A stretch of DNA of 64,000 bases from an uncultured Bdellovibrionales bacterium (GTDB taxonomy: Bacteria; Patescibacteriota; Minisyncoccia; Moranbacterales; UBA1568). Every line of letters begins with the position of its first letter. Position 1 is the first letter of the stretch. The stretch lies in contig CAYLJX010000003.1 in NCBI GenBank assembly GCA_964384235.1, positions 72,389 to 136,388 of the forward strand, read 5' to 3'. The position numbers were made by a program, and so were the translations under genes. Below are positions 19,059 to 63,945 of the stretch, piece by piece. The notes beneath the pieces were generated by a model. That model was given only the letters and a program-made list of their open reading frames with translations, did no database searches and was not told the origin of the DNA.

Positions 19059-20672
19059 ATGGACAGCCTCCGCAGAATCCCACCCCAAAGAGCCCAGCGA
19101 GGCAAAGAAAAGCCGAAACCGAGACGTTTCGCTCTTCCTCCGAAGGAATCATTGCCGTATCCTCCTGAGATTCCCGCTCCGAAATCCGAACCCTCGAAAC
19201 GGTCCGTGTCCCGCTTTTTCCGGGTCGCATTTTTGTCCCTGTTTTTCGCTTTTCTCGGCGTCGCGCTCCTCGCCGGCCTCTTCATCGTCTTCAAAGGGTT
19301 TTCCATCGGAAAAAAGATCTCTGTCGTCAACGACAACGCCCCTTCCCTCCTCTCCCAGATCAAAAGCCTGACGACGACCTGGCTCACCGATACGCGTGTA
19401 CCCCTTCGAGGCGAAGAAGGCGGCCGCATCAACATCCTCCTCCTCGGCCGGGCCGGCGAACACTACCCCGGCAGAAATCTCACCGATACCGTCATGGTGA
19501 TGAGCATCGACACCGAGACCAAGAAGGTCGCGCTTCTCTCATTGCCGCGCGACCTCTACGTGCCCATCGCCGACACCGCCCTCTACACCAAACTGAACTC
19601 CGTCTACCAGTACGGCCTCGGCAACCAGGACGGACCGGAGACGATCCGTGGCACCATCGAGGAAGTGACCGGGCTTCCGCTTCACTACTTCGCCATCCTC
19701 GATTTCGACGGTTTCGAACAGGCGGTCGATGCCATCGGCGGCATCTCAGTGGACGTCGTACGCGATTTCTACGATCCACGCTACCCGGGCAAGAACTACA
19801 GCTACGAGACCTTTGAGATCAAGAAGGGCTGGCAGGAGCTCGATGGCAAGACAGCACTCAAATATGTGCGCGAACGTCACAACGATCCGGAGGGAGACTT
19901 CGGCCGTGCCAAACGCCAGCAGCAGGTGATCCAGGCCATCAAGGAAAAAGCGTTCTCGACCGGGACATTCCTCAACGTCTTCGCCCTCAACCGGCTCCTC
20001 GACACGCTTGGTGAAAACGTCATGACCGACATGACGCTCGACGAAATGCAAAGTTTCCTCGAACTGACGAAAACGCTCGATACCCGGAATGTCACCTCGT
20101 TCGTCGTCGATGCCTGGAAACGTGACAGTCTGCTCCGTGTCTCGCACCTGGAGCTTGGCGGCGTACGTGCCTTCATCCTCGTACCGCGCACCGGCAACTG
20201 GAGCGAGATCCATGACGTCGCGCAAAGTATCTTCTCGCTCGACGAGCTGAAGAAACGCCGCGAACGGATCGCTTCCGAAGAGCCTTCTCTCCTGGTCCTG
20301 GCGAGCCCCGACGCCCTCGCCGCCGCACAGAAATTCGCCCGCCTCGCCAAGGACGAGAGGGGTTTCCAAGAGACCGCCGTACGGACAGTGAAAGCGTTGG
20401 CTGAAACGCCGGAAAAGAGTATCATAAGAGACGACACAGGTCTCGGGAAGCCCTACAGTCTCGATGAGCTCCTGAAAAAGTTTCCTCTGGAGAAAAGCGA
20501 TACGCTCCCCTACGATGTTCCCGCCGGTATCCATCCCGATTTCGTCGTCGTCTTCGGCCAAGACCTCCGGGACGCTCTCGACTTCGATGAGACGGCCTCC
20601 GACGAGACGGTCCTCCAAAACGACAACGATTTCTCCGAACCCCTGACTCCGCAGGAAAAGAAGAAGCGTTAA
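19059..20672 (+). CDS. LytR/CpsA/Psr (LCP) family cell-envelope phosphotransferase
   Basis: N-terminal TM anchor, then INILLLGRAGEHYPGRNLTDTVMVMSIDTETKKVALLSLPRDLYVPI and ALKYVRERH LCP signatures. Confidence 0.85.
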   Translation: MDSLRRIPPQRAQRGKEKPKPRRFALPPKESLPYPPEIPAPKSEPSKRSVSRFFRVAFLSLFFAFLGVALLAGLFIVFKGFSIGKKISVVNDNAPSLLSQIKSLTTTWLTDTRVPLRGEEGGRINILLLGRAGEHYPGRNLTDTVMVMSIDTETKKVALLSLPRDLYVPIADTALYTKLNSVYQYGLGNQDGPETIRGTIEEVTGLPLHYFAILDFDGFEQAVDAIGGISVDVVRDFYDPRYPGKNYSYETFEIKKGWQELDGKTALKYVRERHNDPEGDFGRAKRQQQVIQAIKEKAFSTGTFLNVFALNRLLDTLGENVMTDMTLDEMQSFLELTKTLDTRNVTSFVVDAWKRDSLLRVSHLELGGVRAFILVPRTGNWSEIHDVAQSIFSLDELKKRRERIASEEPSLLVLASPDALAAAQKFARLAKDERGFQETAVRTVKALAETPEKSIIRDDTGLGKPYSLDELLKKFPLEKSDTLPYDVPAGIHPDFVVVFGQDLRDALDFDETASDETVLQNDNDFSEPLTPQEKKKR

Positions 20673-37197: not shown

Positions 37198-40100
37198 CTA
37201 TGCCTTTTCGCTCTCAAGGCCGCGGTAGCCGGTACCGGCGGGGATGAGACGTCCGATGATGACGTTCTCCTTGAGACCGCGCAAGCGGTCTTCCTTGCCG
37301 GAGACGGCGGCGTTGATGAGGACGCGGGCGGTCTCCATGAAGGACGCGGCGGAGAGGAACGATTCGGTCGAGAGGGCCACCTTGGTGATCCCGAGAACCA
37401 TCGACTCGCCGGTCGCTTCCGTGCCCTTCTTGGCGCGGGCCTCTTCGTTGGCTTCCTCGAACTGGTCGCGCTCGACGACGTCGCCGGGGAGGAGCATGGT
37501 GTTGCCCGGATCGAGGACGCGGATGCGGGAGAGCATCTGGCGGATGATGACTTCGATGTGCTTGTCGTTGATGCCTTCACCCTGGCTCGCGTAGATCTCC
37601 TCGATCTCGCGGATGATGTAGCGGTGCACCGCTTCCTGGCCCATCACCTCGTAGAGTTTCTTCAGGTCGATGTGACCTTCGGAAAGGATGGAACCGACAC
37701 CGACGAGATCACCTTCCTTGACTTTGAGCGCGACGTTCTGCGGCACCTGGTACTCGTGCTCGGTCTTCTTGTTGTCGACCACCTTGATCTTGACGACCTT
37801 GGCGGAATCCTTGGCGATGGAGGTCACCTGTCCGTCCACCTCGGAGAGGATGGCTTCGGTCTTCGGATTACGGGCCTCGAAAATCTCTTCGACACGAGGC
37901 AAACCCTGAGTGATATCGGAACCGGCCACACCACCGATATGGAACGTACGCATGGTGAGCTGTGTACCCGGTTCACCGATGGCCTGCGCGGCGACGACAC
38001 CGACGGAGGCGCCGAGCTCGACCAAGGCATTGCGACCGAGGTCGACACCGTAACAGATGCGGCAGACACCGCGGCGGGACTTGCAGGTGACGAGGGTGCG
38101 GATCTTGACTCTGGTGACGCTCTTGTCGTTCTCAATGGCCTTGGCTTCTTCCTTGGTGATGAGCGTGCCCTTCTTGACGAGGGTTTCCTTGGCTTCGTTC
38201 TTGACGGCTTCGACGGTGACACGACCCTCGACACGGGCGGCAAAGCTTGCGCCGATGGCGTCGGAATCCTCACGGTAGAGGTAGGCACCTTCGGTATCGG
38301 CACAGTCCTCGTCGCGGACGATGATGTCCTGGGCCACGTCGACAAGACGGCGGGTGAGATAACCGGCGGTCGCGGTACGGAGCGCGGTATCCGCCATACC
38401 CTTGCGGGCGCCGTGGGTCGAGATGAAGTACTCGAGAACGTTGAAGCCTTCCTTGAAGGAGCTCTTGACCGGGAGCTCGATGGTCTCTCCGGTCGGTCCG
38501 GCCATGAGACCCTTCATACCGGTCATCTGCACGACGACGGATTCGGAACCACGGGCCTTGGAATAGACCATGGAGTAGACCGGGCCTTCCTTGTCGAGCG
38601 TCTCACGCACCGCATCGGTGATCTTGTTCTTGGTGTCGTTCCAGATCTCGATGACGCGGTTCTTGCGCTCGTCGTTGGTGAGGAGACCCATGTTGTACTG
38701 ATTCTTCACCTCGGCGACATGACCTTCGGCTTCGACGATGAGTTCCTGCTTGACCGACGGCACGACGAGGTCGTCCATGCCCCAGCTGAGACCGGACTTG
38801 GAAACGGAACGGAAGGCGAGGTCCTTGAGCCGGTCGGCGAAGCGGGCGGCTTCGTCCTGACCACGGGTCGTGAGGATGCGACTCATGAGGACGCGGAGGT
38901 TCTTCTTGACCATCTCCTCGTTCACGAAGCGCAGGTCTTCCGGAAGGATGTCATTGAGGAGGATACGACCGACGGACGTCTCGATGAGCGTACCCTGGTA
39001 GGAGAGCTTGATCGCGACGTTGACATCGACGAGTCCGTTCTGGTAGGCGAGGATGGCTTCGTCCATGGTACCGAACGCCTTCCCCTGTCCCTTGCCTTCC
39101 GGTTTGATGTGGGTGAGATAGTAGGCACCGAGCACCATGTCGAGACGCGCCGACACGATCGGTTCGCCCGAGGCAGGCTTCAAGAGGTTCTTGGACGAGA
39201 GCATGATGTTGGCGCTCTCTTCGCGGGCCTGATCGGTGAGCGGCACGTGGACGGCCATCTGGTCACCGTCGAAGTCGGCGTTGAAGGCCTCACACACCAT
39301 CGGGTGGAGACGGATGGCCTTGCCTTCGATGAGGACCGGCTGGAACGCCTGTATGGAGAGACGGTGGAGGGTCGGGGCGCGGTTGAGGAGCACGTAGTGG
39401 TGCTCGATGATCTCGTCGAGGATCTCATAAGCCTCTTCGGTCTCGGCATCGACCATGCGGCCGGCGGTGCGGACGTTGTGGGCGTGCTCCTTCTCGATGA
39501 GCTTGTTGATGATGAAGGGCTTGAAGAGTTCGAGGGCCATCTTCTTCGGGAGACCACACTGATGCAGCTTGAGCTTGGGACCCACGACGATCACGGAACG
39601 ACCGGAGTAGTCCACGCGCTTGCCGAGGAGGTTCTGGCGGAAACGACCCTGCTTGCCCTTGAGGGCGTCGGCGAGGGAACGGAGCGCCCGGCGCTGACCG
39701 GTCGACGCGGCGGTCGAGGCCTGGCCGCGACGGGCCGAGTTGTCGAAGAGGGCGTCCACTGCTTCCTGGAGCATGCGCTTCTCGTTTCTCGTGATGACTT
39801 CCGGCGCACCGATAGCCATCAGTTTCTTGAGACGGTTGTTGCGGTTGATGATGCGGCGGTAGAGGTCGTTCAAGTCAGAGGTCGCGAAACGTCCACCGTC
39901 GAGAGCCACCATCGGACGAAGGTCCGGCGGAATGACCGGTACGGCAGTCGGGAGCATCCACTCGAGACGAAGACTGGCCTTCTCGAAGCCTTGGTAGACC
40001 TTGAGACGCTGGAGGAGCTTCTTCTGGTCGAGCGATTCGCTCTCGGTGAGCTCCTCGCGGAGCTTCTCGAGCTGCGCCTTGATATCGATCTTCTCGAGGA

Positions 40101-40788
40101 TCTTGCGGATGGCCTCGGCACCGATGCCGGCGGTAAAGATCTGCCCGAAGCGCGAGGAGAGGTTGAAGTACTCCACTTCCGAGAGGATCTGGTAGGGACG
40201 GAGGTTCTTGATCTCTTCCTTGGTGCCACGATACTGGTCCTTGAGCTCCTCGAGGAGTTTCTCGGTGACTTTCTCGTTCTTCTCACCGGCCTTCACTTCC
40301 TTCTGCTTGCCCTTGTATTCCTTTTCGAGGGATTCGAGAGACTGGACCTTCAGCTCCTCGTTGACATCCATGATGATGTACGAGGAGAAGTAGATGACGC
40401 GCTCGAGCTCCTGCGGCGAGATGCCGAGGACGAGACCGATCTTGCTCGGCACGCCGCGGAGGAACCAGATGTGCGATACCGGTGTGGCGAGCTTGATATG
40501 GCCCATGCGCTCGCGACGGACGATGGCACGGGTCACTTCGACGCCGCACTTGTCGCAGACGATGCCCTGATAGCGGATGCGCTTGTACTTGCCGCAGTAG
40601 CACTCCCAGTCCTTGGAAGGACCGAAGATCTTCTCACAGAAGAGACCGTCCGGCTCGTAGCGCTGGGTGCGGTAGTTGATGGTTTCCGGCTTGGTGACTT
40701 CGCCGTGGGACCACTCCATGATCTGGTCGGGGCTCGCGAGGGTGAGTTTCACGCTGTCGAAGTCGCTCACTTTCGTAATGTTTTCCAT
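37198..40788 (-). CDS. rpoC: DNA-directed RNA polymerase subunit beta' (compact, 1196 aa)
   Basis: CxxC..CxxC zinc finger, NADFDGD catalytic loop. Confidence 0.97.
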
Positions 40789-40883
40789 ATGATTTGACTA
40801 ACAACTTACAACTGACGACTTACAACAGATGCATCTGTTCAGTTTTCTTGGTTGTCGGTTGTTCGTTGTTCGTTGTTAGTTGA

Positions 40884-44288
<3,405 letters not shown>

Positions 44289-51238: not shown

Positions 51239-51451
51239 CTCCTCACTCTTTTGTTGAAAAAACTTCCCCCATCCCCTGACGCTGCAGAAGACTCTCCATC
51301 CTATACCAGAAACGCTTTTTTGTCACGTCATAACAACAAAAGACCTGAAAAACCAGGTCTTTTCTTTAGAGCTCTTTCAGCCACCACGTTCGCACCTGGT
51401 TCGAATCCCGCGATCCCGAATTCATGGAGGTCATTCGCCAGATCCGGACGA

Positions 51452-51640
51452 TCAAAGCCATGGTGGAGGAGGCGGCTCATAGGGAGGCTCTCCCGGTTTC
51501 GGCGCTTTGTGAGACAAGAGCCAGAAGAGGTTCAGGAGCTCGAGGTACCGGCCCTTCGCCTCGGCGAAAGAAAGCACTTCGTCATAGTCCGCTTCCATTC
51601 TCGCACGGAAGCGGTCGATTGTCTCATCGGTGATCTGCAT
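51452..51640 (-). CDS. Small hypothetical protein (62 aa) with a Pro-rich tail
   Basis: Helical composition; no Shine-Dalgarno sequence seen. Confidence 0.25.
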   Translation of the reverse strand: MQITDETIDRFRARMEADYDEVLSFAEAKGRYLELLNLFWLLSHKAPKPGEPPYEPPPPPWL

Positions 51641-51830: not shown

Positions 51831-52610
51831 TCAAGTCTTGGGGTATTCCGCATTGCACTCTTGCCGCAGGCGAGCACGTTCCGTGTCTTGGACCGGCCGC
51901 TCAATAGTGCTTCGAAGCGTCGCACGCATCCATGCACCCGGACCGAAGAGCTGTGATGGACTGGAACAGGAAATCGGAAGGCGCACACCTCGTACGACGC
52001 CGTCCTCGGCTATGAACTGGAGATCGCCAAGCTGGCCACGGCTTTCTTCTACGTTAAGAACCTCCGGTCGACCAACTATGACATAGCCGGGAGGAGCATC
52101 AAAAGCCACCACGTCTGATTGCGAGTGCCCCCCTCCACCTACGCCTGCTCCCTCGCATCTCACTTGGTTTCGAACCTCTTGTGTCTTGCGATCTTGAAAA
52201 CGAGCTACGGAGCCAGCAAGGCACTCTGCGATCTTGGCGTTTCGGTGTTCAGCAGCGTGCTGAGCCTCTTTTGCAGCGTCGAAGACTGCGTAGCCAAGGA
52301 CACATACGCCACCGAAGATGAGCACGAAGGCACCCATCTTCACGCCCCAGTGCTCTTTGCCAAAGAAGAGCCATGCCAGGAGACCGACTATGCATGCCAG
52401 CAGTGCCAAGACCCCAAGGGGTGTTTTGATCGCTGCTTCGAAGACTCTCGGGAACTGCTCAACAAGTGTTTGCAACATCCATTCCTCCCGATATCGAACT
52501 CGATCGATGACGTTCTGGTGCGCATCGCGAAATGTTTCCAATCGTGGCAATGTGCCGCCTAGGCGCGACTCGCTTCCCACGACAGAGCGCATAGCCAGCG
52601 ATTGCGACAC
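51831..52610 (-). CDS. Hypothetical 2-TM membrane protein downstream of SGNH-like paralog 1
   Basis: ..LGVLALLACIVGLLAWLFFGKEHWGVKMGAFVLIFGGVCVLGYAVF.. TM hairpin. Confidence 0.4.
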   Translation of the reverse strand: MSQSLAMRSVVGSESRLGGTLPRLETFRDAHQNVIDRVRYREEWMLQTLVEQFPRVFEAAIKTPLGVLALLACIVGLLAWLFFGKEHWGVKMGAFVLIFGGVCVLGYAVFDAAKEAQHAAEHRNAKIAECLAGSVARFQDRKTQEVRNQVRCEGAGVGGGGHSQSDVVAFDAPPGYVIVGRPEVLNVEESRGQLGDLQFIAEDGVVRGVRLPISCSSPSQLFGPGAWMRATLRSTIERPVQDTERARLRQECNAEYPKT

Positions 52611-52679: not shown

Positions 52680-53489
52680 TCACACTGCGATCGCGAGTTC
52701 CTTCAAGGTGTCGATCCAGCGTTCATTCACGATCCGCTGGAATCCCTCTCTCGTTGGGTGGAGCTCGTTGTCCCAGTCTTCGAGGTAGTTCGGGGAAACA
52801 AGACATCCGCGTGAATTGACCAAGTAGATTCGTTTGCCCGGATCCGCAAACTGCGAAAACTCCTCGGCGAGGCGGTCGATGAGGATGCGACAGATCTTCC
52901 GGCGGAGATCGGGGTCGTTCGGAACCTGTCGTTCGTCCATGGCCGGAGCGAGCCACGGCCCCGTTATCTTCAACGTCTCAAGTTTGAAGCCCCGTCCATC
53001 CGGGATGGGATAGTCGTAGGAGTGGAGGATGACGGCCGGGTGAAGCCCCTGTTTTCCGGCGGCACGCCAGACTTGATGGGTCATGGCGCCAAGGGCGGTA
53101 CCCAGTCGTCCCATCAGGGCATCCATCGCCGCCTCCTCGATACAGTCTTCCGGCGTTTGCGCTTTGGAGCAATTCCTTTTCAGCCCAAGCCCGTAATCGA
53201 CCGCATCGTTTCCTGCACCACCGATTCGGACAAACGAATAGTAGGGCATGTTCTCTGGTCGCAGTTCCCAAGCGAACTGTTTCGCGTACCTGCCGAAGAC
53301 GTACTCCTCCAGCTTGGCGCCGATGTACCCGAGCGACTGGATCTGACGATACGGATCCTGGACGCGCGGATGGGTCGCAATCGCGTAGAGGAGGTTGCTC
53401 TTCGGATACCAGAACCAGGAGTCTCCGATTGCCAGAAGTGCGGGAAATTCGCCGGGAAGCCACTGCTCGCCGGGCGCATAGATTTTCAT
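52680..53489 (-). CDS. GDSW-motif SGNH-hydrolase-like protein, paralog 1
   Basis: LLAIGDSWFWY (block I Ser), GGAGND (block III), WDNELHP (block V His); paralogous to 62572..63420. Confidence 0.65.
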   Translation of the reverse strand: MKIYAPGEQWLPGEFPALLAIGDSWFWYPKSNLLYAIATHPRVQDPYRQIQSLGYIGAKLEEYVFGRYAKQFAWELRPENMPYYSFVRIGGAGNDAVDYGLGLKRNCSKAQTPEDCIEEAAMDALMGRLGTALGAMTHQVWRAAGKQGLHPAVILHSYDYPIPDGRGFKLETLKITGPWLAPAMDERQVPNDPDLRRKICRILIDRLAEEFSQFADPGKRIYLVNSRGCLVSPNYLEDWDNELHPTREGFQRIVNERWIDTLKELAIAV

Positions 53490-53664: not shown

Positions 53665-55068
53665 TCACTTTGAAGTCAATCCCGCTTCCGTCATGAACTT
53701 GACGATCCGGGCCGCTGTGAGTGCTTCGTTGTAACCAAGCCTATCCTGAAACCGATTGAAGCCTTGGACGTGAATGCCGATAACCGCCCCGTCTGATAGA
53801 TCAAAAATTGGGCTGCCCGAGTTTCCGCCAGACGTGTTGGCCTTGTGCACGAACATTCCCTCATCAGTGACCTTTTTTCCCCCAGTAAAGCCACCTGAGA
53901 GCCGCTTGAACGGAAACTGGGGCGCCAACTTGTCGGGTGTTCTGAAGAACTCCACTTGTTCCGCAACGGTCATATCGTCGGGAGGTCCCGGATAGCCCAT
54001 GACCGCCACAATCATGTTCCCGGCGTATGCAGCATTAGGTCTTTCCGCAAGCGTGAGGCTTTTCGGAAACTGCTGATCGGTCGAAGTAAGGAGTATGGCC
54101 ATGTCATCTCGAGAACCTTTAGGCACTGCGTGGACTGCATTCAGAAAATATGAACGCTCCTTGTTGGGCTCCTCGCAAGCATTGTCCTTACCCAATGGGT
54201 ACTCGACGTCAAAATAGACCTTCGCTCCAGGGCGAATCTTCCAAAGATTCTTCTGTTCATCATACTGAGCAATACTTTTGAGCACGTGTAGGTTTGTAAT
54301 CAGATGATTCGATCCCACGACGAAGCCTGATCCTGCTGGACGATCGTCAAGCATTATCAGACCTACGCTTCTCCCGGCCCGAACGAGTGCGTCTTTATGA
54401 GATGAAATTGTCTTACTCCACTCCAATGGGTCTTTGGGCGCCCAGAGTTGCTCCTTGCAGACAAGGAAATAGGGATTTGAGAGCGCTGCAAACGACTCAG
54501 CAACAGCCGGCGATATTCCCTTAATCTGACCCAAAACAAATTCTCGTGCCCGTTGCTTCGTTGAAATTGCCGTGTTGATAGCGGAGAGCGCCACATTGTT
54601 GGCTGGCGTCTTCGGCTCGACGGCGTTAAGCTGCGCCAGCTCTACCTGCAACTGATCGATCTCCGATTCGATTACAGCGAGTAGCGCTTGTCTCTGCGCG
54701 GGACTTTGTTGTTCCAGCGATTCTTCCAAAGACTGAGGCGTCACGGTCCCGGAACGCGATGCCGGTGTCTTCGACAGATCACCGTTGGAACCAACGAGTG
54801 GTGCGCCAGGCAGCTTTCGAGGAATCGACTGGCTGACTAGTCGAAGTTCCACATCGCTTATTTCGCGGGCACGACTAACGGATTCCACGGTGGCGCGCCT
54901 GAGGGCGTCGCCTAAGAGGTCGCCAAAGAGATCTCCCGCTTGGACGCTCGACGTTCCTAAGGCAATCGAGCACAGTAGCAGTAGACCTTTCTCAAACCTA
55001 GGACGATTGATGTTGCGATTCATTTCGGTGGCCGGCGCGCAGCTAGTTTGTTCGTACCCGTTTTTCAT
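53665..55068 (-). CDS. Secreted trypsin-like (S1, chymotrypsin-fold) serine protease with an N-terminal coiled-coil region
   Basis: Signal peptide; ..GSGFVVGSNHLITNLHV.. (His), ..DMAILL.. (Asp), ..GNSGSPIFD.. (Ser). Confidence 0.8.
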   Translation of the reverse strand: MKNGYEQTSCAPATEMNRNINRPRFEKGLLLLCSIALGTSSVQAGDLFGDLLGDALRRATVESVSRAREISDVELRLVSQSIPRKLPGAPLVGSNGDLSKTPASRSGTVTPQSLEESLEQQSPAQRQALLAVIESEIDQLQVELAQLNAVEPKTPANNVALSAINTAISTKQRAREFVLGQIKGISPAVAESFAALSNPYFLVCKEQLWAPKDPLEWSKTISSHKDALVRAGRSVGLIMLDDRPAGSGFVVGSNHLITNLHVLKSIAQYDEQKNLWKIRPGAKVYFDVEYPLGKDNACEEPNKERSYFLNAVHAVPKGSRDDMAILLTSTDQQFPKSLTLAERPNAAYAGNMIVAVMGYPGPPDDMTVAEQVEFFRTPDKLAPQFPFKRLSGGFTGGKKVTDEGMFVHKANTSGGNSGSPIFDLSDGAVIGIHVQGFNRFQDRLGYNEALTAARIVKFMTEAGLTSK

Positions 55069-55105: not shown

Positions 55106-56239
55106 CTAGTCCAATGGAATACGTTTGAAGTGCGTTTCGGCAATCGCAACGCCGACGTTTTTGATAGTCCCCGCGCTGTCGCCCTCTGTCACACGATACA
55201 TTGCGACTATCCCACCAGCGGCATATAGCCGGTCACTTCGCCAGATGCTAGTCGTCTTGAGGGAAGAACCGCCCTTGGAGAGCACTTTGAGCGTGAGAGA
55301 CCGCCCCGATGCCACCTTTAGGTGTTGATCAACAACTTCCCCCACAAGGACGGAAAGCAGCAGTGGCTTTTTCGTTGCAGCGTCGACAGTTGTGAGGCGG
55401 GTTGCAAAATCGTCCACTTGTTTGATGAGTGCGTCAGCCTTCTCCTTCTTGTTCTTGTCAGCGCTCGCGGCGACGAGCGCACTGCGACGCACGAGCAGCG
55501 CCTCGAGGTTCTTCCTAAAATCCGATGTAATCTTCCCAGAAATGATGCCATCCACGGTACCCGTCGGGTACAGAACTTTTGCTTTGAGCTTGAATACGAC
55601 ATAGTCAAACAGCAACTCGTCAGGAACCGCTGCGTCCCCGAACGCCAAACTCTTATCGGTCCGCACAATCTGAGTCAATTGTGCCGCTTGCATCAGAACT
55701 GCTCCTAGCGTGACAATTGGAAGAGGGCCCTCCGGTATAGCTTCTAGTTTGACTTTGCCCAATAGCGATTCCACCCCCCTTGCGGTGCGTTCGAGCGTCG
55801 CTTTCTCGTCCCAGTAAAGCAACAATGCCACTCGATCCGTGTCAGTCATCAGGACACATGTCGCTTCGCAGTCTTTCTCGACCGCTGTCGCAATTTGGGC
55901 CGCCACCTGCGCAAACGACTCTGCTGCTCGAGCACTGACGTGGAACTTGTCGCGCTCACTGGCTTCTATCGTGAGTGATCCTTTCTTGCCAAATCCGTCT
56001 GGCAGTGCCGGATACTCGTTCTTGATTAAGGAAGCCTGTGCTTCCAATAGGTCGCTCTCGGCCTTGATCAAGGCCTTCTTGTCATTTAGGTCGTCGATGG
56101 CTGCTTGATGCGGATTTACTTGGTCCGCTGCACTACTTGCCACCGGGAAGACAACGAAGAAGACTAGAAGAAGATTCTTCGGCCAGGTTTCCAATACCCA
56201 CCTTGCCCCAGTTGCAAACACAGTTGGACAGTTCTTCAT
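55106..56239 (-). CDS. Secreted hypothetical protein (377 aa)
   Basis: Signal peptide ..LLLVFFVVFPVASSAADQ; no recognised domain. Confidence 0.55.
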   Translation of the reverse strand: MKNCPTVFATGARWVLETWPKNLLLVFFVVFPVASSAADQVNPHQAAIDDLNDKKALIKAESDLLEAQASLIKNEYPALPDGFGKKGSLTIEASERDKFHVSARAAESFAQVAAQIATAVEKDCEATCVLMTDTDRVALLLYWDEKATLERTARGVESLLGKVKLEAIPEGPLPIVTLGAVLMQAAQLTQIVRTDKSLAFGDAAVPDELLFDYVVFKLKAKVLYPTGTVDGIISGKITSDFRKNLEALLVRRSALVAASADKNKKEKADALIKQVDDFATRLTTVDAATKKPLLLSVLVGEVVDQHLKVASGRSLTLKVLSKGGSSLKTTSIWRSDRLYAAGGIVAMYRVTEGDSAGTIKNVGVAIAETHFKRIPLD

Positions 56240-56607: not shown

Positions 56608-57174
56608 TCACACCATCCCTCGCTCCGCCAGACTCACCACGTCCGTCCCCGCCACCACGAAGTGATCGAGGACCTTCACATCGACAAGTCCAAGCGCCTG
56701 CTTCAAGGCACTCGTCAGCAGCTCATCCGCCCGGCTCGGTTCGGAAACGCCAGAAGGATGGTTGTGGGCGAAGATGAGAGCGGCAGCGTTGTGCCGGAGG
56801 GCCCGCTTGACGATCTCCCTTGGATACACCGACGTCTGGCTCAAGGTGCCTCGGAAGAGTTCTTCCGAAGCGATGAGGCGGTTCTGGGCATCCAAGAAGA
56901 GCGTGAGGAACGACTCGTACTCCTGAGCAACGAAATATGCCAGGAGGTAGCGCTTCACGTGCTCCGGCGAGGTGAGGAGGATCTCCTCTCGCCGCAGGTC
57001 TTCGTAGAGGAGCCGCGTGACCAACTCCTTGGCGACCTGAAGTCGCCGCTGTGCGCTCGTCCTCGCTTCGCCCGCAAAGAGCGGCACGAGACTTCCCTGA
57101 TACAACTTCTCTGCCGCCTTCGCCCCTATGAGCCTCTCCAGCAACTCGCGGTCGCTGGCCTTCTGCATGTCCAT
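56608..57174 (-). CDS. radC: RadC-like JAB-domain protein
   Basis: N-terminal helix-hairpin-helix-like region and C-terminal ..[16 protein letters not shown].. JAMM motif. Confidence 0.85.
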
Positions 57175-57311
57175 GGCAATGGTCTCCTTCTAGAGTAAAG
57201 AACCAATTCCATCGTCATGCATGCGGCATCTCTCGCGTAGGCTTGGAAACGTGCCAAGCTGACACGTTCTCCCGTCTCCGCCCAGGAGCGTCTCTCCCCT
57301 ACCGTGGGAAG

Positions 57312-58505
57312 ATGGACTTCTCTCACGATATCGCGCTCTTCGCCCGGACCAATGCCAGGCGAAGCTTCCAGCCCTTCGGCCTCCGTCAGGCCGACCGCCT
57401 GTTTCACCTGTATGCCATAGGGAAGACGGGAACGGGCAAGTCGACCCTCCTCGAGACGCTCGCCCTTCAGGACATGCGCGCGGGCCGCGGATTGGCCGTC
57501 ATCGATCCCCATGGCGACTTGGTGCTACGCCTCAAGAAGGCGATGCCGCCCTCGCGCCGAGACGATCTGCTTTTCTTCGACGTCCCGGATGTCTCCCAAG
57601 CCTTCGGCTACAACCCGCTGCGCAAGGTGCGGCCCGACAAGATTCCCCTGGCCGCCTCGGGACTCCTGGAGGCCTTCAAGAAGCTCTGGACGGATGCCTG
57701 GGGCGTACGCATGGAGCATGTCCTGCGCAATGCTCTCTTCGCGCTCCTCGAATACGGAGAGGCGACCCTTCCGGACATCCTTCGCCTCATGACGGACAAC
57801 GCCTTCCGATACCGCGTGTCAGCGACGCTCACCAACGAACAGGTGAAGGCCTTCTGGCAGAACGAGTTCCCCAAGTACCACCCTCGCTACCGCCAGGAGA
57901 GCATCGCTCCCATCCAGAACAAGGTCGGCGCCTTCCTGGCCGATCCCAGGCTCTACCGGATCTTCACGGCTCCTCCCGTCGATCTGCGTTTCCGCAGAGT
58001 CATGGACGAGGGGAAGATCCTCCTCGTCAATCTCTCCAAGGGACAACTCGGCGAAGACAGCGCCTCGCTCCTCGGGGCTCTCCTCGTCACGACGCTCTCC
58101 TTGGCGGCCTTCTCCCGGGCGGATATGCCGGAAGCGGAGCGGAAGCCTTTCTTCATCTTCGTCGACGAATTTCAGTCGTTCACGACCCTTTCGGTGGCCG
58201 GGATGATCTCGGAATTGCGTAAGTACAACGTGGGGCTCGTCCTCGCCAACCAGCACCTCCACCAGCTCGAGCCCGATGTCCGGCACGCGGTCCTGGGGAA
58301 CGTGGGAACGCTCGTCGTCTTCCGGGTCGGCCCTGAGGATGCCCGCTTCCTCGCCCATGAGTTCGAGGGAAGCTTCTCGCCCTTCGACCTCATGAGCCTC
58401 GCCAACCATGACATCTACCTTCGCCTCATAATCGACGGGACTCCCAGCCCGCCCTTCAGCGCGACCACCATCAAGCCAGATGATCTTGATCGCTTGAGGA
58501 TGTGA
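57312..58505 (+). CDS. TrwB/TraD (type IV coupling protein)-like P-loop ATPase of the FtsK-HerA superfamily, soluble form
   Basis: Walker A YAIGKTGTGKSTLLETL followed by VIDPHGD (compare TrwB GATGTGKSVLL...VIVDPNGD); Walker B FFIFVDEFQSF; ..VGLVLANQHLHQL.. sensor; no N-terminal TMs. Confidence 0.75.
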   Translation: MDFSHDIALFARTNARRSFQPFGLRQADRLFHLYAIGKTGTGKSTLLETLALQDMRAGRGLAVIDPHGDLVLRLKKAMPPSRRDDLLFFDVPDVSQAFGYNPLRKVRPDKIPLAASGLLEAFKKLWTDAWGVRMEHVLRNALFALLEYGEATLPDILRLMTDNAFRYRVSATLTNEQVKAFWQNEFPKYHPRYRQESIAPIQNKVGAFLADPRLYRIFTAPPVDLRFRRVMDEGKILLVNLSKGQLGEDSASLLGALLVTTLSLAAFSRADMPEAERKPFFIFVDEFQSFTTLSVAGMISELRKYNVGLVLANQHLHQLEPDVRHAVLGNVGTLVVFRVGPEDARFLAHEFEGSFSPFDLMSLANHDIYLRLIIDGTPSPPFSATTIKPDDLDRLRM

Positions 58506-58551: not shown

Positions 58552-59064
58552 ATGGGACACGCCAAGCCGACGGAGATCTTGTCGCACTGGAACACCCGCG
58601 TCGACGGCATGCAGCAGTCGTCCCACGAGTTTTACGGAGCGGTCGAACGCACCCTCGATACGCATAGTCTCAAGGACTACAAGACAGAGCGCGTGAACAT
58701 CTCGGAAGGCGGCATCTTCTCCTCGAAGCGCGAGTACCTCCAGGTGCGCCGCGCCGACATCGTCTTCCACATCTGCGCTGCGCCGTATGGCAACGGCTTC
58801 TTCCTCTCCTGGTGGCTCGGACGGATCGAGTCGGGCTTCTGGGCCTGGATCTCCGACATTCCGGTGATCGGCATGCTCGCGCAGAATTTCTTGAAACCCC
58901 TCACCTACTACAAGCTCGACACCGCCGCGATGTTCCAAGGCGTGGTCCATTCCGTCGTCCTCGAAGTCCTCGACGGCCTGACGACGGAGAAGGGCATCCG
59001 GGCGCTGGCTGAGAGCGAACGGAGGCCCGTCATGCGCGACTTCTTCGCCCGCCTCGGAGGCTAA
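58552..59064 (+). CDS. Hypothetical protein (170 aa) between the two ATPases
   Basis: Protein-like ORF with one Trp-rich hydrophobic segment. Confidence 0.45.
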   Translation: MGHAKPTEILSHWNTRVDGMQQSSHEFYGAVERTLDTHSLKDYKTERVNISEGGIFSSKREYLQVRRADIVFHICAAPYGNGFFLSWWLGRIESGFWAWISDIPVIGMLAQNFLKPLTYYKLDTAAMFQGVVHSVVLEVLDGLTTEKGIRALAESERRPVMRDFFARLGG

Positions 59065-59079: not shown

Positions 59080-62000
59080 ATGTCCGGCCTCTCGCCTGCG
59101 GAAATCATCACCACGAGCTTCTATGCGTGGGAGGTACGCGGGCGCGGGTGGCAGGTAGCGGACTATCCCGTCTGCCTTGAGCCGCCGTTTCGGCATTGCT
59201 TCGTCCTGCCCGATCTCGTCGCGGAAACGAAGCCGATCGATGACGGAAAACGGCCGACGTTCCTCAGTTCCGTGGTCGAGGGCCTGCGGAGCGCCTTCGC
59301 GCTCGACGCCACCCCTGCGCCCGAGCCCGCCCCACCGTACGAGGAACCAGCCCCCTATCCGGCACTTGCGTCCGGACCGCTCACCGCGTTTTGCGTGACG
59401 GTGCCGATGGATCACAAGAGCCATCCGGAAACGACAATCCGCCTTCTCGTCGCGCTGTCGACCTGCTGCTTCCCCGTGTCCCTCGAACTCATCGGCTGCG
59501 AAGGCCAGGTCATCATCCAACTGGTCTGCGCCGACACCGACCAGGCGCATGTGGCCGCGCAGTGCCTCGCCTACCTTCCCGACGCTGCGGTCATCGAAAC
59601 CGAGGACCTCCTTGCGAGCGTCTGGGATCGACGGCGGGAGCACGCCGTCGTCGATTTCGGGCTCTCTCAGGAATTCTTTCTGCCGTTTGATGGACTGAAG
59701 AGCCAGAAGCTCGACCCGTACCTCTCCCTTGTTCCCTCCCTCGCCAGGGCGGATCGAGACGAGGCGATCCTCCTACAGGTCCTCTTCCAAGGCGTCCAGA
59801 ATCCGTGGGGCAAGGCTATCCGCGACGCCCTCGATGATGGCCAGGGCGGTTCTGTGTTCGCGGACGCCCCAGCATTTCCCCGGCTGGCCGATGAGAAGCT
59901 GAAGACCTCCCTCTTTGCCGTCTCGGTCCGTGTCGCCGCACAGGCACAGGAGGCGGAACGAGCGTGGCACTTGGCCCGTTCGACCGGCGCCTTTTTCCTC
60001 CAATTGGGCCGACCCGGAGCCAATGAACTCCTCCCGCTTGAGAACGACGGCTACCGAGAGGATCTTCATGTCGAAGCCATCCTCACGCGGCAGTCGTACC
60101 GCCTTGGGATGATCCTCTCGGCCGACGAGTTGGCGGCGCTCGCCCATCTTCCCGATGCCGCGGTCCGTCATCCGTCCCTCACGCGGGAGGAGCGGCGGAC
60201 GAAGCCTCTTCCCGTCGAAGCCTCCGGACATCCCCATGTCCTCGGCGAAAACCAGCACCGCGGGAAGATGTCCGTCGCGTCGCTCAGTGATGGGCAGCGG
60301 CTCCAGCACACCTGGATAGTCGGCGCCTCCGGGACGGGAAAGTCGACGCTTCTCCTGAACCTCATCACTGAGGACATTCGGCTCGGTCATGGTGTCGCGG
60401 TGCTGGATCCGCACGGCGACCTGATCGACGACATCTTGGCGCGGGTGCCAGACAGCCGCACGAGCGATGTCATCGTCTTCGACCCGAGCGATACTGAGTG
60501 GCCCATCGGATTCAATATCTTCTCAGCCGGAAGCGAGGGCGAGCGGGCGCTCTTGGCTGCCGATCTCGTCGGGATCTTCCGGCGGTTCTCGACATCTTGG
60601 GGCGACACCATGAGCGCGGTGCTCGGGAACGCGGTCCTCGCGATCCTCGAGCACCCGCAGGGTGGGACGCTGCTCGACCTCAGGCGGCTCCTCGTCGATG
60701 AGCGCTTCCGCCGCGCGTACCTGGAGGACGTGGCGGACGAGGAGGTCGCCTTCTTCTGGTCGCGCGAGTACCCCGTGATCGGCTCACGTTCGATCGGCCC
60801 GATCCTGACCCGGCTTGACACCTTCCTGCGGCCCAAGGTCATTCGGCATATCGTCGGACAGCCGGATGGGAAGCTCCATTTCTCCGACGTCATGGCGTCG
60901 AAGCGCATCTTTCTCGCGAAGCTCTCCCATGGCCTCATCGGCGAGGAGAATGCCTACCTCCTCGGCAGCCTCATCGTGGGAAAGTTTCTCGGACTCGCGC
61001 TCGCGCGGCAGCAGCTCGCGAAGGATGAACGCGCCGCCTTCTTCCTGTATGCCGACGAGTTTCAGCACTTCCTCACGCCCTCCATGGAAACGCTGCTCAC
61101 GGCGGCGCGAAAGTACGCGCTTGGGGCAACGCTCGCCCATCAGACGATGGCGCAGCTCCGGGACTCGCCCAAGGTGGAAGGCGCGCTTCTCGGCAACGCC
61201 TACACGCGCATCGTCTTCCGAACCGGGGAAAGCGATGCGCGGCAGCTGGCCGAGGGGTTTTCCTTCTTTGAGGGGCGCGACATCCACGGTCTGGGACGGG
61301 GCGAGGCGATCGCCCGGCTCGGATCGAGCGGAAATGACTTCAACCTGAAAACGCTGCCGCTCCCCGGCGTGCCGCCTGGGGCGGAGGAGCGGCGCTCCCA
61401 GATCATCTTCCGCTCGCGCGAGCGCTACGGGACGCCGATCGAAGCGCTGCGGGCGCTCCTCGGGGCACGGTACAGAGCAAGCGAGGAACCGGCCGAAGCG
61501 AAGCCGAGGCCGCCGCTCGAGGAGGCACCGCCCGCGCTCTCGGGTGCGGGAGAGCCGATCGCCGCTTCCTGTGAGACACCACGGGCAAGCGTTCCGGAAC
61601 CAAAGACCGGTGAGCAACTGATGGCGCGCCGGGTACCGATCAATGTCGCAGCGGTCACCCCGGGACGGGGCGGGCAGGAGCACAAATACCTCCAGCACCT
61701 CGTGAAACGCTTGGCCGAAGAGCGCGGTTTCCGCGCCACGATTGAAGAGGCCGCGGGAGATGGCCGGGCAGACGTGGTACTGAGCAAGAGTACGCAGCGA
61801 ATCGCCTGCGAGATCTCAGTGACGACGGACCATATCCACGAGGAAGAGAACTTGAGGAAGTGCCTCGCGGCCGGATTCGAACAGATCGTCTTTGTCGTAC
61901 CCGACCGGAAACGAAGGGAGAAACTGAAAGGACATTTTCAGGAGATTGCCGGAATCGACTCGTTGGCGGTGATATCGACGGAGGAGATCGTCGCGTACCT

Positions 62001-62160
62001 CGACGGGCTGGATACCGGATCGGCCGTGGCCGAATCGACCGTGCGAGGCTACAAGGTGAAAGTCACGCGGCAGACGGTCTCGCCAGAGGAGCTGGCCGGA
62101 AGGCGCTCGGCCATCGCCGAGGTGATCGCCCGGTCGCTCCTCAAACACAAGGACGTTTGA
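59080..62160 (+). CDS. Large TrwB/HerA-like ATPase fused to an unknown N-terminal domain and a C-terminal Hjc/restriction-endonuclease-like (PD-(D/E)xK fold) domain
   Basis: Walker A WIVGASGTGKSTLLLNL..VLDPHGD, Walker B FFLYADEFQHF, paralogous to 57312..58505; the C-terminus ..LVKRLAEERGFRATIE..GDGRADVVL..RIACEISVT resembles the Hjc ..KGFAVVR..PDIIA..IEVKS pattern. Confidence 0.75.
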   Translation: MSGLSPAEIITTSFYAWEVRGRGWQVADYPVCLEPPFRHCFVLPDLVAETKPIDDGKRPTFLSSVVEGLRSAFALDATPAPEPAPPYEEPAPYPALASGPLTAFCVTVPMDHKSHPETTIRLLVALSTCCFPVSLELIGCEGQVIIQLVCADTDQAHVAAQCLAYLPDAAVIETEDLLASVWDRRREHAVVDFGLSQEFFLPFDGLKSQKLDPYLSLVPSLARADRDEAILLQVLFQGVQNPWGKAIRDALDDGQGGSVFADAPAFPRLADEKLKTSLFAVSVRVAAQAQEAERAWHLARSTGAFFLQLGRPGANELLPLENDGYREDLHVEAILTRQSYRLGMILSADELAALAHLPDAAVRHPSLTREERRTKPLPVEASGHPHVLGENQHRGKMSVASLSDGQRLQHTWIVGASGTGKSTLLLNLITEDIRLGHGVAVLDPHGDLIDDILARVPDSRTSDVIVFDPSDTEWPIGFNIFSAGSEGERALLAADLVGIFRRFSTSWGDTMSAVLGNAVLAILEHPQGGTLLDLRRLLVDERFRRAYLEDVADEEVAFFWSREYPVIGSRSIGPILTRLDTFLRPKVIRHIVGQPDGKLHFSDVMASKRIFLAKLSHGLIGEENAYLLGSLIVGKFLGLALARQQLAKDERAAFFLYADEFQHFLTPSMETLLTAARKYALGATLAHQTMAQLRDSPKVEGALLGNAYTRIVFRTGESDARQLAEGFSFFEGRDIHGLGRGEAIARLGSSGNDFNLKTLPLPGVPPGAEERRSQIIFRSRERYGTPIEALRALLGARYRASEEPAEAKPRPPLEEAPPALSGAGEPIAASCETPRASVPEPKTGEQLMARRVPINVAAVTPGRGGQEHKYLQHLVKRLAEERGFRATIEEAAGDGRADVVLSKSTQRIACEISVTTDHIHEEENLRKCLAAGFEQIVFVVPDRKRREKLKGHFQEIAGIDSLAVISTEEIVAYLDGLDTGSAVAESTVRGYKVKVTRQTVSPEELAGRRSAIAEVIARSLLKHKDV

Positions 62161-62571
62161 TAGCGACTCGCGGATCGGACGGCTGGCAAAGAAGTTTCAT
62201 TGAAGATCCTTTCTCTCGCATTGACGGGCACTGCGTCTTTGGCAGGACGGGCAGTGGCCAATGTCTTGGCCGCCATTGCCGCTCAGATCCATCAAGCAGA
62301 ACGGCACAGTCCCGCCTCGAGGAGCTATGTGCGTGATCTTTCGGTACTACAACGAAGGATCCGTTACCTCCACGTTGGCGCCGCTTGCTGCCAGCACTGC
62401 CCAAGAAGCGTGAATCCCATGGCAGGCGACAACGGTCCGTCAAGTTCGAAAGCATTTTTTATAGACCACGATCGTTTCCTGTTCAATAGATCGAATGCCA
62501 GATACCACAAGGCATGCGAGAGCCATATGCTGTTCGTCCAACAGCCTCGGCGTTCATTGGAAGGTCCGCCC

Positions 62572-63420
62572 ATGCCGCAAGCCATCGTCCTTACGCCGTC
62601 GCAACTGGAAAATCCCGACCTCGGGCAACCGCATCGGTGGGAGTTCTTCGACCGACATTACCTGGCCGAAGGAGATTCGTGGTTCACTTTGGCAGCGCTC
62701 CCCGGCGGAAACCTTCTCCAGGAGCTGCATCTACAGCGATCGTCACTGGTTATCAATACCGCCTCCCCGGGAGACACGCTCTCCCATATCGTCGAATGGC
62801 GCCAAAACCGCCCGTTTGTAAAGCTACTGTCCGAACGCAAGTTTGCACAAAAATGGGATGGGGTGCTCCTGAGCGCGGGCGGCAATGACCTCATTGATGC
62901 CGCAATTTCTCGAGACGGCATCCTCCGCCGTCCGAGCCCGACGGCAACCACCGCAGGTGAGTGCATTCACGATGAGAATCTTGAATTATTGAAACGCCAT
63001 CTGTCGTTCCATCTTGAACAGATCATAGAACTCCGCGACGCTCGGAAGAGCCCCAACCAGGGCATACCGGTCTTTCTCCACACGTACGACTATCCCACTG
63101 CGAGGCCGGCGCCCGCGAAGCTCGTTGGCGTGGTAGGCGTTTCCGGACCGTGGCTGCATCGCGCGTACACAGAACACCATATCCCCGATGCATTATGGTC
63201 ACCTTTGACAGAGCATCTGATCGACTGGCTGGCCAGATTGCTTCAGGAACTGAAGCTTCCAAATGTAACCGTTATCGATACGAGAGGGACACTCGAGCGA
63301 GCTGCTGCGGGAACAACTGGAGACAGCGGTGACTGGCTCAACGAGATCCATGCGAATCAAGGCGGCCGGAAGAAGCTTGCGAAACGGTGGGCGCAGGACT
63401 TGCATCGCATTGTCGGATAG
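62572..63420 (+). CDS. GDSW-motif SGNH-hydrolase-like protein, paralog 2
   Basis: YLAEGDSWFT, SAGGNDL, HTYDYP, GPWL, WLNEIHAN, parallel to paralog 1; start taken at MPQAIV with a GGAAGG Shine-Dalgarno. Confidence 0.65.
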   Translation: MPQAIVLTPSQLENPDLGQPHRWEFFDRHYLAEGDSWFTLAALPGGNLLQELHLQRSSLVINTASPGDTLSHIVEWRQNRPFVKLLSERKFAQKWDGVLLSAGGNDLIDAAISRDGILRRPSPTATTAGECIHDENLELLKRHLSFHLEQIIELRDARKSPNQGIPVFLHTYDYPTARPAPAKLVGVVGVSGPWLHRAYTEHHIPDALWSPLTEHLIDWLARLLQELKLPNVTVIDTRGTLERAAAGTTGDSGDWLNEIHANQGGRKKLAKRWAQDLHRIVG

Positions 63421-63462: not shown

Positions 63463-63945
63463 TTGGAAGAGGAAGTCGATATGACAGAAGACGATCACAA
63501 ACGCGAGCGTGAATCGTTTGCGGCCATCATCGAGAGTCTTGAGAAATCAGTGAGGGCACACCGTACAGGCATAGATGGCTGGCTGTACAACGGCGGGACC
63601 GTCGTTACCCTGGTCTTGATGGCGACCGTCTCGATTCTGTCCGGGAAAATCTTCCCGACGGACACGTTTGCAGAATGGATGGCACCAATGCTTTCGGCGA
63701 CGGCGGGCCTGGTCGTCGCGCTCGAACGGTCATTGGGATTTGGGCAACGTTGGCGGTTTCACACCGAGATGAAAGCAGGCTATGTCACTGTGATTGACAT
63801 GATCCAGTTCTACTTTGCGCTTCCTCAGGATGAGCTAGAACAACGTGCCAAGCTCCGTGTGGAAATTTGGCAGTCATTGAACGCATTGCGCAGTCGTGAA
63901 TCGGCTATACCCAACTCCGGTGGAGCCGTATCCGGTGGAGCCTGA
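63463..63945 (+). CDS. Small 2-TM protein with SLATT/DUF4231-like architecture
   Basis: N-terminal helix, TM hairpin (VVTLVLMATVSILSG / MLSATAGLVVALE), then ..FGQRWRFHTEMKAGY.. helix typical of SLATT effectors; inference only. Confidence 0.4.
   Translation: MEEEVDMTEDDHKRERESFAAIIESLEKSVRAHRTGIDGWLYNGGTVVTLVLMATVSILSGKIFPTDTFAEWMAPMLSATAGLVVALERSLGFGQRWRFHTEMKAGYVTVIDMIQFYFALPQDELEQRAKLRVEIWQSLNALRSRESAIPNSGGAVSGGA

Follow-up and report, generated by a model that had tools for sequence, protein, structure and literature searches.

A TrwB-like ATPase without membrane anchor in a recurrent gene cassette on a mobile island: a putative cytoplasmic DNA motor–nuclease module

The type IV coupling proteins (T4CPs) TrwB, TraD and VirD4 possess a P-loop domain with the Walker A context GxGKS…DPxGD and a Walker B motif followed by an AxQ sensor, a helical insertion (the all-alpha domain) and an N-terminal transmembrane (TM) domain, and they are linked to relaxase or mating-pore genes. 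The element CloDF13, which lacks a mating pore of its own, pairs the T4CP-type MobB with MobC, a restriction-endonuclease-like relaxase of the MOBC class. A ring ATPase of the FtsK/HerA superfamily coupled genetically to a nuclease, often in defence or mobile contexts, is found in the HerA–NurA, SIR2-HerA and DUF4297-HerA systems. Deletion of the transmembrane domain (TMD) abolishes the function of the T4CPs TrwB, MobB and PcfC, and T4CPs that lack a TMD and have a membrane partner are a recognised class (TraJ/TraI of pIP501; class iii, Llosa & Alkorta) (PMC7431656). Here we compare these systems to the gene at positions 57312 to 58505 of a stretch of 64,000 nucleotides from contig CAYLJX010000003.1 (the window, to which all positions refer unless a locus number is given). 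The gene, called ATP1 in the following, had been described in an original prediction as a T4CP/HerA-like ATPase without membrane anchor. We report that it belongs to a cassette together with radC, p170 and ATP2, the last of which combines a second T4CP-like ATPase with a putative nuclease domain. ATPases of this kind are already known, and what appears to be new is a widespread, uncharacterised T4CP-like motor–nuclease cassette. With about even confidence we propose that ATP1 belongs, as one subunit, to a conserved module on serine-recombinase integrative islands that works in the cytoplasm as a DNA motor and nuclease.

The open reading frame (ORF) of ATP1 is present as predicted and runs on the plus strand from an ATG at 57312 to a stop at 58505, coding for a soluble T4CP (TrwB)-like P-loop ATPase of 397 amino acids. 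Gene callers reported the same 397-residue product on four other contigs with identical DNA. A TTG at 57243, which follows an upstream stop, is a possible earlier start and would add only 23 non-hydrophobic (hydrophilic) residues. All motifs quoted in the original prediction were recovered, namely the Walker A motif GKTGTGKST (residues 37-45, nt 57420-57446), DPHGD (residues 65-69, nt 57504-57518), the Walker B motif FVDEFQ (residues 283-288, nt 58158-58175) and the ANQ(HL) sensor (residues 312-314, nt 58245-58253). Together with an FRVG motif (residues 337-340, nt 58320-58331) they are invariant across an alignment of 34 diverse relatives in which every sub-type of the family is included.

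The best Pfam family for ATP1 is TrwB_AAD_bind with E=8e-11 and 41.9 bits compared to a gathering threshold (GA) of 20.5. The match covers profile positions 17-316 of 387 (300/387), and the Pfam models for DUF87/HerA, TraG-D_C and generic AAA proteins all stayed under their cut-offs. By sequence TrwB (1e9r/1gl6, E=1e-6) was also the best solved structure, and otherwise only DotL was found, weakly. If the family profile of ATP1 is aligned to R388 TrwB, hhalign gives a probability of 97.5% (E=6e-12); weaker alignments were obtained for the VirB4 protein TrsE of pSK41 (84%), the T4CP of pSK41 (41%) and the VirB4 protein TrwK of R388 (29%, 75 columns). The all-alpha insertion of ATP1 lies inside the Pfam match span and aligns through the helical bundle of ATP2 at 38% identity. 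The similarity to TrwB, proposed before from the motifs, is by these sequence and profile measures far beyond chance. As judged from its sequence, ATP1 is a genuine soluble relative of the conjugative coupling ATPases in a distinct TrwB-like clade. A Kyte-Doolittle scan (19-residue window, ≥1.5) reported a single window in ATP1, which corresponds to the core strand that immediately precedes Walker B, whereas its N-terminus is hydrophilic. The absence of an N-terminal TM segment was thereby confirmed, and no membrane segment was found by hydropathy in p170 and ATP2 either.

ATP1, p170 and ATP2 are co-directional and form an operon with gaps of 46 nt and 15 nt, and radC is divergent from ATP1. 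This context, including the nuclease-domain-carrying ATP2 and a link to large serine recombinases, had been overlooked in the original prediction. The product of radC is a RadC-like JAB-domain protein of 188 residues (56608..57174, minus strand; Pfam RadC 1.6e-43, NCBIfam RadC above cut-off). Promoters in the divergent intergenic region of 137 bp between radC and ATP1 (57175..57311) are presumed from the gene arrangement alone; a scan of this region for the sigma-70 consensus was empty and Rfam gave no match. A search around the cassette for inverted repeats resembling an origin of transfer (oriT), promoters and terminators revealed nothing beyond chance.

The p170 gene (58552..59064, plus strand) codes for a partner protein of 170 residues upstream of ATP2, without known fold family. 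Pfam, NCBIfam, PADLOC and PHROG contained no match. Its family comprises 266 clusters, all of them unnamed or labelled ‘hypothetical protein’ and without Pfam domain, and 30 residues are invariant in the alignment. An AlphaFold2 (AF2) model of moderate quality (predicted local distance difference test, pLDDT, 78) produced only weak START/DcrB-like matches with Foldseek, and no confident structural relative in PDB and BFVD. In all of 16 distinct loci with a full-length ATP2 the p170 gene is located directly upstream of it.

The arrangement of radC divergent from ATP1–p170–ATP2 recurs at 45-72% identity in two Accumulibacter genomes, one Leptothrix genome and several metagenome contigs. A divergent RadC next to ATP1 was found in the homologous loci L085, L086, L167/168 and L169 (55-60% identity). 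The identities of ATP1, p170, ATP2 and RadC amount to 72, 67, 56 and 60% in L085 and to 63, 54, 51 and 55% in L169. As they drop in parallel for all four genes, radC, ATP1, p170 and ATP2 co-diverge as a unit.

ATP2 (59080..62160, plus strand) is a paralogue of ATP1 with 1026 residues and three parts, a DUF8128 N-domain, a T4CP-like ATPase and an Mrr-like C-domain. With the linker counted, four parts can be distinguished in an AF2 model based on 61 homologues (mean pLDDT 85). The N-domain (59080..60264, residues 1-395) is of the DUF8128 type without TM segment, has no hydrophobic N-terminus, and is modelled as an alpha/beta domain at residues ~100-380 with pLDDT >90 over residues 100-400. Precomputed Pfam matches to PF26449 (DUF8128) are faint on the ATP2 of the window and solid on its orthologues, and hhalign relates the N-domain to stand-alone, TM-anchored DUF8128 proteins of Patescibacteria with a probability of 99.3% (E=3e-20).

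The ATPase core with its all-alpha insertion occupies 60265..61479 (residues 396-800). Its Walker A motif is located at nt 60322-60348, DPHGD at 60406-60420 and Walker B at 61048-61065, and the helical bundle that forms the insertion is modelled at residues 486-592. This part is 38% identical to ATP1 and matches TrwB_AAD_bind (2e-10) as well as T4SS-DNA_transf (8e-7, 28.7 bits compared to GA 20.1). Foldseek found TrwB (E=3e-14, TM(target) 0.64), TrwK/VirB4 (E=1e-16) and also HerA structures. A low-complexity linker (61480..61665, residues 801-862), which is variable in the alignment and predicted to be disordered (pLDDT 31-45), leads to the C-domain (61666..62160, residues 863-1026). Here the AF2 model is compact over residues 865-977 with an alpha-beta3-alpha-beta-alpha topology and a pLDDT of about 90. 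Invariant residues of the C-domain are E889, D898, E911, S913, H920, E921, N924 and K927. Weak, sub-threshold matches were obtained for Mrr_cat (E=0.0033), PDDEXK_9 (0.043) and the PD-(D/E)xK protein AF1548 (PDB 1y88, 0.12). The topology and the conserved residues suggest an Mrr-like domain of the PD-(D/E)xK restriction-endonuclease fold, which would be a nuclease.

In comparison to TrwB, TraD and VirD4 the cassette ATPases share the P-loop domain with its motif order and the helical insertion, and these proteins gave the best sequence, profile and structural matches. The differences are that the cassette ATPases have no N-terminal TM domain and no linked relaxase or mating-pore genes, that the cassette contains two paralogues, one of them fused to DUF8128 and a nuclease-like domain, and that the clade is almost absent from plasmids. 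Curated NCBIfam models of T4CPs (TraD, CD1115 and others) scored ATP1 with at best 35.2 bits, the cut-off being 366. ATP1 fails three defining features of coupling proteins, a membrane domain or a partner within a type IV secretion system (T4SS), linkage to a relaxase or a T4SS, and a curated score. As deletion of the TMD kills TrwB, MobB and PcfC, proteins that are all soluble would probably not be able to engage a channel on their own.

This bears on the view that ATP1 is a genuine conjugative T4CP whose relaxase and mating-pore genes are located elsewhere on the island or in the genome. ATP1 exceeds the gathering threshold of TrwB_AAD_bind, NCBI names its relatives ‘type IV secretion system DNA-binding domain-containing protein’, and t4cp genes can lie far from virB4 (PMC12102498). 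Yet none of 121 short ATP1-like relatives carries a TMD, and ATP1 stays under every curated equivalog cut-off. The original prediction had seen no relaxase or VirB genes, and this held for the Pfam-scanned ORFs of the window and for the 4.5 kb beyond its end, where no relaxase or T4SS family was found. We further scanned with Pfam 134 proteins that flank the cassette in 14 other loci (10-kb flanks), and no relaxase or mating-pore family was among the top neighbour families. Only 61 out of 72,556 plasmid records match the clade, none of them over the full length, and 59 are typed as non-mobilizable. We therefore consider a true T4CP highly improbable.

The cassette is carried by an island, the left boundary of which lies at 51361..51369, where identity to other contigs begins. 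To the right of it, at least 17.1 kb of DNA are shared at 99.98-100% identity with L081-L084, loci that come from four other sequencing runs, and this identity extends at least 4.5 kb past the end of the window. To the left, the five assemblies show three unrelated contexts. One of these contains the ORF of a large serine recombinase which crosses the junction, and the window keeps only a remnant (51369..51633, plus strand) that corresponds to the last 264 nt of the ORF in L081/L082/L084. An active element may have its attachment-site (att) junction here, or the assembly may have been joined at the edge of a repeat. A tRNA/att signature at the boundary was considered and rejected; a GGTTCGAATCC-like string is present, and ARAGORN and Rfam gave no match there.

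The most common neighbour family in the survey is Resolvase+Recombinase (9 out of 134 proteins), followed by helix-turn-helix regulators. Restriction-modification enzymes and DNA methylases, OLD/Gabija-like ATPases, PDDEXK nucleases, SIR2 and toxin-antitoxin proteins also occur. One sub-family of the recombinases is located upstream, together with a protein of ~480 residues, in L081, L170, L110 and L009. A second sub-family is encoded on the strand of ATP2 and downstream of it, immediately so in L171 and L174, at a distance of one gene in L009 and L172, and of several genes in L175.

The link to large serine recombinases, which sometimes are part of the same gene string, could mean that an integrative mobilizable element uses the cassette for its mobilisation. 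In that case ATP1 and ATP2 would be coupling proteins, the C-domain of ATP2 would act as a MOBC-type relaxase nicking an oriT, and the island, once excised by the serine recombinase, would pass to a T4SS that a co-resident conjugative element provides. Among characterised proteins TrwB is the closest relative, RadC is common in integrative elements, and the occurrence of identical island DNA in at least three contexts across metagenomes suggests recent mobility. CloDF13 provides a precedent with its T4CP-type ATPase and a DNA-cutting protein of PD-(D/E)xK type. MOBC is the commonest relaxase class in Patescibacteria, where 39 relaxase genes are close to t4cp (PMC12102498), and T4CPs without TMD are recognised, for example TraJ/TraI of pIP501 (PMC7431656). 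Still, MobB of CloDF13 needs its three-helix TMD, as its removal is fatal to MobB, TrwB and PcfC alike (PMC7431656), whereas ATP1, p170 and ATP2 have no membrane segment and no conserved membrane partner accompanies them. Furthermore, the clade is essentially absent from the 72,556 plasmids with its few matches on non-mobilizable records, all NCBIfam T4CP models remain far below cut-off (~35 compared to 366 bits), and no conspicuous oriT-like inverted repeat was seen around the cassette. On balance we regard mobilisation as unlikely.

A broader view of the family places the missing anchor in context. An exhaustive search returned 5,934 clusters at 50% identity for E≤1e-30 and 22,805 for E≤1e-3, with solo (~400 residues), C-terminally extended and N-terminally extended architectures. 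Within a sample of 165 loci an N-terminal hydrophobic segment was detected in 0 out of 121 short ATP1-like relatives compared to 28 out of 38 fused DUF8128-ATPases, the exceptions being those of the ~1020-residue ATP2 type. This pattern indicates that the clade as a whole is anchorless and that ATP1, as far as the sequences tell, is not peculiar in this respect, the membrane contact being supplied by DUF8128. In Patescibacteria the closest relatives of ATP1 (44-49% identity) are encoded after a stand-alone DUF8128 protein of ~430 residues with an N-terminal TM helix. The pair is found in a housekeeping synteny SecD-SecF-sigma-like-DUF8128-ATPase-TrmD-ComEC-ComEC, the last being the metallo-beta-lactamase (MBL) part (L011-L052 and L119-L165, e.g. 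L027 5301-14886). This suggests a core membrane-associated, possibly DNA-related role for the ‘orphan T4CPs’ there. DUF8128 and the ATPase are fused in Microgenomates to a protein of ~780 residues with a strongly hydrophobic N-terminus. Seen against these forms, the cassette of the window appears to be a derived one, in which the anchor of DUF8128 was lost and a nuclease-like domain gained. The Patescibacteria pair resembles TraJ/TraI of pIP501 in combining a soluble ATPase with a separate membrane partner; the DUF8128 domain of the cassette differs in having neither an anchor nor a T4SS context.

The synteny with comEC, observed in dozens of Patescibacteria loci, speaks for a further alternative, in which the cassette is a horizontally spread version of a membrane-proximal motor for DNA uptake or handling and serves transformation, recombination or repair together with RadC. 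Several lineages have RadC close to the ATPase, some bacteria induce radC during competence, and NCBIfam contains a weak match to the DNA-translocating ATPase CedD. A published survey counted 5,713 VirD4-like orphan T4CP homologues in Patescibacteria, only 148 of them near virB4, and its authors consider that they may be exapted (PMC12102498). The same study reports that the t4cp homologue is not essential in Ca. S. epibionticum (PMC12102498), which argues against such a motor, as does the fact that the comEC synteny is shown for Patescibacteria only. The cassette of the window lies on a mobile island, has lost the anchor and carries a putative nuclease domain, and the comEC gene of the window (8761-10251) has no such neighbour. 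An uptake motor is in our view quite improbable.

Associations with RadC and nucleases are not restricted to the cassette. In Acidobacteria the ATP1-like genes have a Cas4-like PDDEXK_1 nuclease, RadC, methylases and integrases as neighbours, so that the association of motor, nuclease and RadC recurs in different forms. RadC is found one to three genes from a T4CP-like ATPase in Microgenomates, Acidobacteria and Betaproteobacteria (L066, L068, L070, L073 and L077, e.g. L070 7596-11209; L004 7578-11164). This recurrence in unrelated lineages hints at a functional link between RadC and the ATPase.

HerA systems resemble the cassette in the coupling of ATPase and nuclease. They differ in the nuclease, which in the cassette is of the PD-(D/E)xK type and fused, and not NurA, SIR2 or DUF4297. 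The T4CP part of the earlier T4CP/HerA-like description stood, the HerA part did not: ATP1 reaches 21.9 bits for DUF87, below the GA of 23.2, the HerA models of PADLOC gave E ~3e-3, and with Walker A starting at residue 37 there is no room for an N-terminal HAS barrel. Pfam FtsK_SpoIIIE did not match ATP1 and scored ATP2 with 19.9 bits compared to a cut-off of 24, while the true FtsK of the window (34737-37112) reaches 211.8. We rejected HerA and FtsK as identities of ATP1 and consider VirB4 an improbable one, their matches being sub-threshold or weaker than those to TrwB.

The alpha/beta N-domain followed by an ATPase makes ATP2 similar to VirB4 (TrwK). VirB4 structures were its best whole-chain Foldseek matches (E ~1e-16, 800-880 columns), with a TM-score of only ~0.3, and TIGR00929 yields 28 bits, far from its cut-off of 643. 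The DUF8128 profile did not match TrsD and TrsE of pSK41, TrwK of R388 or PDB sequences; that DUF8128 is homologous to TrsD or to the N-domain of VirB4 thus appears doubtful, and only the low-TM whole-chain Foldseek alignments hint at it. DUF8128 is not mentioned in the literature searched. The top PADLOC match of both ATPases is mad8 (PDLC04140; 1.5e-18 and 3.4e-12) of MADS, an operon whose eight genes include those for a methylase, a specificity subunit and a kinase; none of these is found by the cassette. As HHpred/PDB alignments underlie the mad profiles, the match reflects the generic ATPase fold, and membership in MADS was rejected, the other seven genes being absent.

Among 2.9 million viral contigs three full-length ATP2 and no p170 were found. 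The PHROG family phrog_5156 (824 positions, no assigned function) matches ATP1 (4e-50) and residues 271-794 of ATP2 (9e-57), so the DUF8128-ATPase fusion is present in some (pro)phage genomes. A phage origin of the cassette was rejected in view of the near-absence from viral contigs, with one PHROG match.

Observed family membership, domain architecture, lack of an anchor, gene linkage and distribution together lead us to the proposed cytoplasmic motor–nuclease module. It is favoured as all three proteins are soluble and the anchor was lost as the nuclease domain was gained, and by the recurrent nuclease and RadC neighbours in a mobile-island, defence-rich context. The near-absence from plasmids and the lack of relaxase and T4SS genes among the top neighbours support it as well. 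ATP1 and the core of ATP2, in both of which Walker A, Walker B and sensor motifs are intact, could be paralogous ring-forming, DNA-pumping ATPases. DUF8128 elsewhere would be the docking partner of such ATPases as a separate membrane protein or a TM-bearing N-terminal fusion, and ATP1 probably docks on the anchorless DUF8128 platform of ATP2. The motors would thread or track DNA and feed it to the Mrr-like PD-(D/E)xK domain at the C-terminus of ATP2. The p170 protein may be an obligate adaptor or regulator of ATP2 and RadC a co-conserved DNA-processing accessory. Such a complex would act on intracellular DNA and not as the gate of a secretion channel.

Its most likely role is the cutting or resecting of DNA in conflicts between element and host, meaning that incoming DNA would be excluded or defended against. 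Only slightly less likely, as a close second, is that the island's own DNA is processed once it has been excised. A DNA-processing or defence role, as argued in the original prediction, is indeed more plausible than classical conjugation, although the defence part is something we infer.

Several points weigh against the proposed module. All functional statements on the family, from oligomerisation, DNA translocation and nuclease activity to the roles of the partners and the biological role, are ones that we infer. The assignment of the nuclease relies on fold topology and sub-threshold matches, the lysine of the ExK motif is replaced (E-I-S), and the domain could bind DNA without cutting it. 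ATP1 was found in only three of eight loci retrieved via ATP2 (adjacent in two and, in one, 2.4 kb off on the opposite strand, while the flanks available for the remaining five do not contain it) and may thus be optional or act independently. A serine recombinase downstream of ATP2 on the same strand, as in five loci, suggests that the function is intrinsic to the element and that the cassette is not cargo. Models of known defence systems gave no match save the generic mad8 profile. Finally, the Patescibacteria pair is chromosomal, housekeeping-linked and membrane-anchored, so that the ancestral function of the family is not defence.

The motor–nuclease proposal can be extended to a machine derived from T4SS ATPases that works without a channel. 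A ring of ATP1 would sit on the DUF8128 platform of a nuclease-bearing ATP2 ring with p170 as sensor, and would capture mobile DNA that is incoming or excised, such as linear ends or conjugative DNA led by a relaxase, and would reel in and cut what it has captured. This extension is speculative, and we think it rather doubtful. If true, it would represent a new class of anti-plasmid, anti-phage or inter-element exclusion systems on serine-recombinase islands, and thousands of ‘orphan T4CPs’ in Patescibacteria would have their long-missing partner, at the membrane or as a platform, in DUF8128.

The database names of thousands of proteins of the clade imply conjugation, but the evidence presented here points elsewhere. 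The clade, with about 5,900 clusters at 50% identity, has its own partners, namely DUF8128, p170, RadC and PD-(D/E)xK nucleases. Once the function of the cassette is worked out, an annotation in wide use would be corrected. The result could also account for the ‘orphan T4CPs’ of Patescibacteria, and could add a new defence or exclusion system, or a device for transfer or maintenance of serine-recombinase islands. With three to four genes the cassette is compact and hence suited to heterologous expression.

Further genes recur near ATP1-like ATPases. The protein of ~480 residues mentioned above (cluster c20), without family match, is always divergent from one sub-family of large serine recombinases near the cassette (L081 1026-2474, minus strand; L170 4028-5326; L009 7475-8926; L110 6228-7610). 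ATP1-like genes of Acidobacteria and other bacteria are divergent from the Cas4-like PDDEXK_1 nuclease (c31) and a protein of ~300 residues without Pfam match (c26; L004 8142-9837, L096, L100, L104, L114 and L116). A second frequent neighbour without named family is c16 (~250 residues). No relation of c16, c20, c26 and the PDDEXK_1 nuclease c31 to DUF8128 was found.

Around the cassette of the window the island carries additional cargo. Two SGNH/GDSL-like hydrolase paralogues, which are 27% identical, both start with a GDSWF-type motif and are found in this island only, bracket the cassette (52680-53489, minus strand; 62200-63420, plus strand). The other genes code for a trypsin-like protease (53665-55068, minus strand), the sole PADLOC matches of which are to the protease part of RT-Protease (DRT-type) models, a protein of 377 residues with a signal-like N-terminus (55106-56239, minus strand), a 2-TM protein (51831-52610, minus strand) and a SLATT_4-like protein (63463-63945, plus strand; E=1.4e-4, below cut-off). 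These four may represent a separate conflict system. The original prediction had used the hydrolase and 2-TM neighbours as an argument for a defence or DNA-processing role. That argument is not supported, as the SGNH hydrolases and the 2-TM gene, and presumably the trypsin-like and SLATT-like genes as well, accompany the cassette in this island only and are absent around it elsewhere.

On the window side the island boundary is preceded by a hairpin terminator (51335-51366); the stretches compared at the boundary were 51335-51633 of the window, L081 2556-4322 and L083 1-1693. The first 44 kb of the window are ordinary chromosome with genes for EF-G, ComEC, FtsA, HisRS, GyrB, RecA, FtsK and RpoBC. 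This part, which suggests a monoderm or Patescibacteria-like host, contains short RpoB (1134 residues) and RpoC (1196 residues) proteins (37198-44288, minus strand), a ComEC with a separate MBL gene (8761-10251, minus strand) and a LytR_cpsA_psr protein (19059-20672, plus strand).

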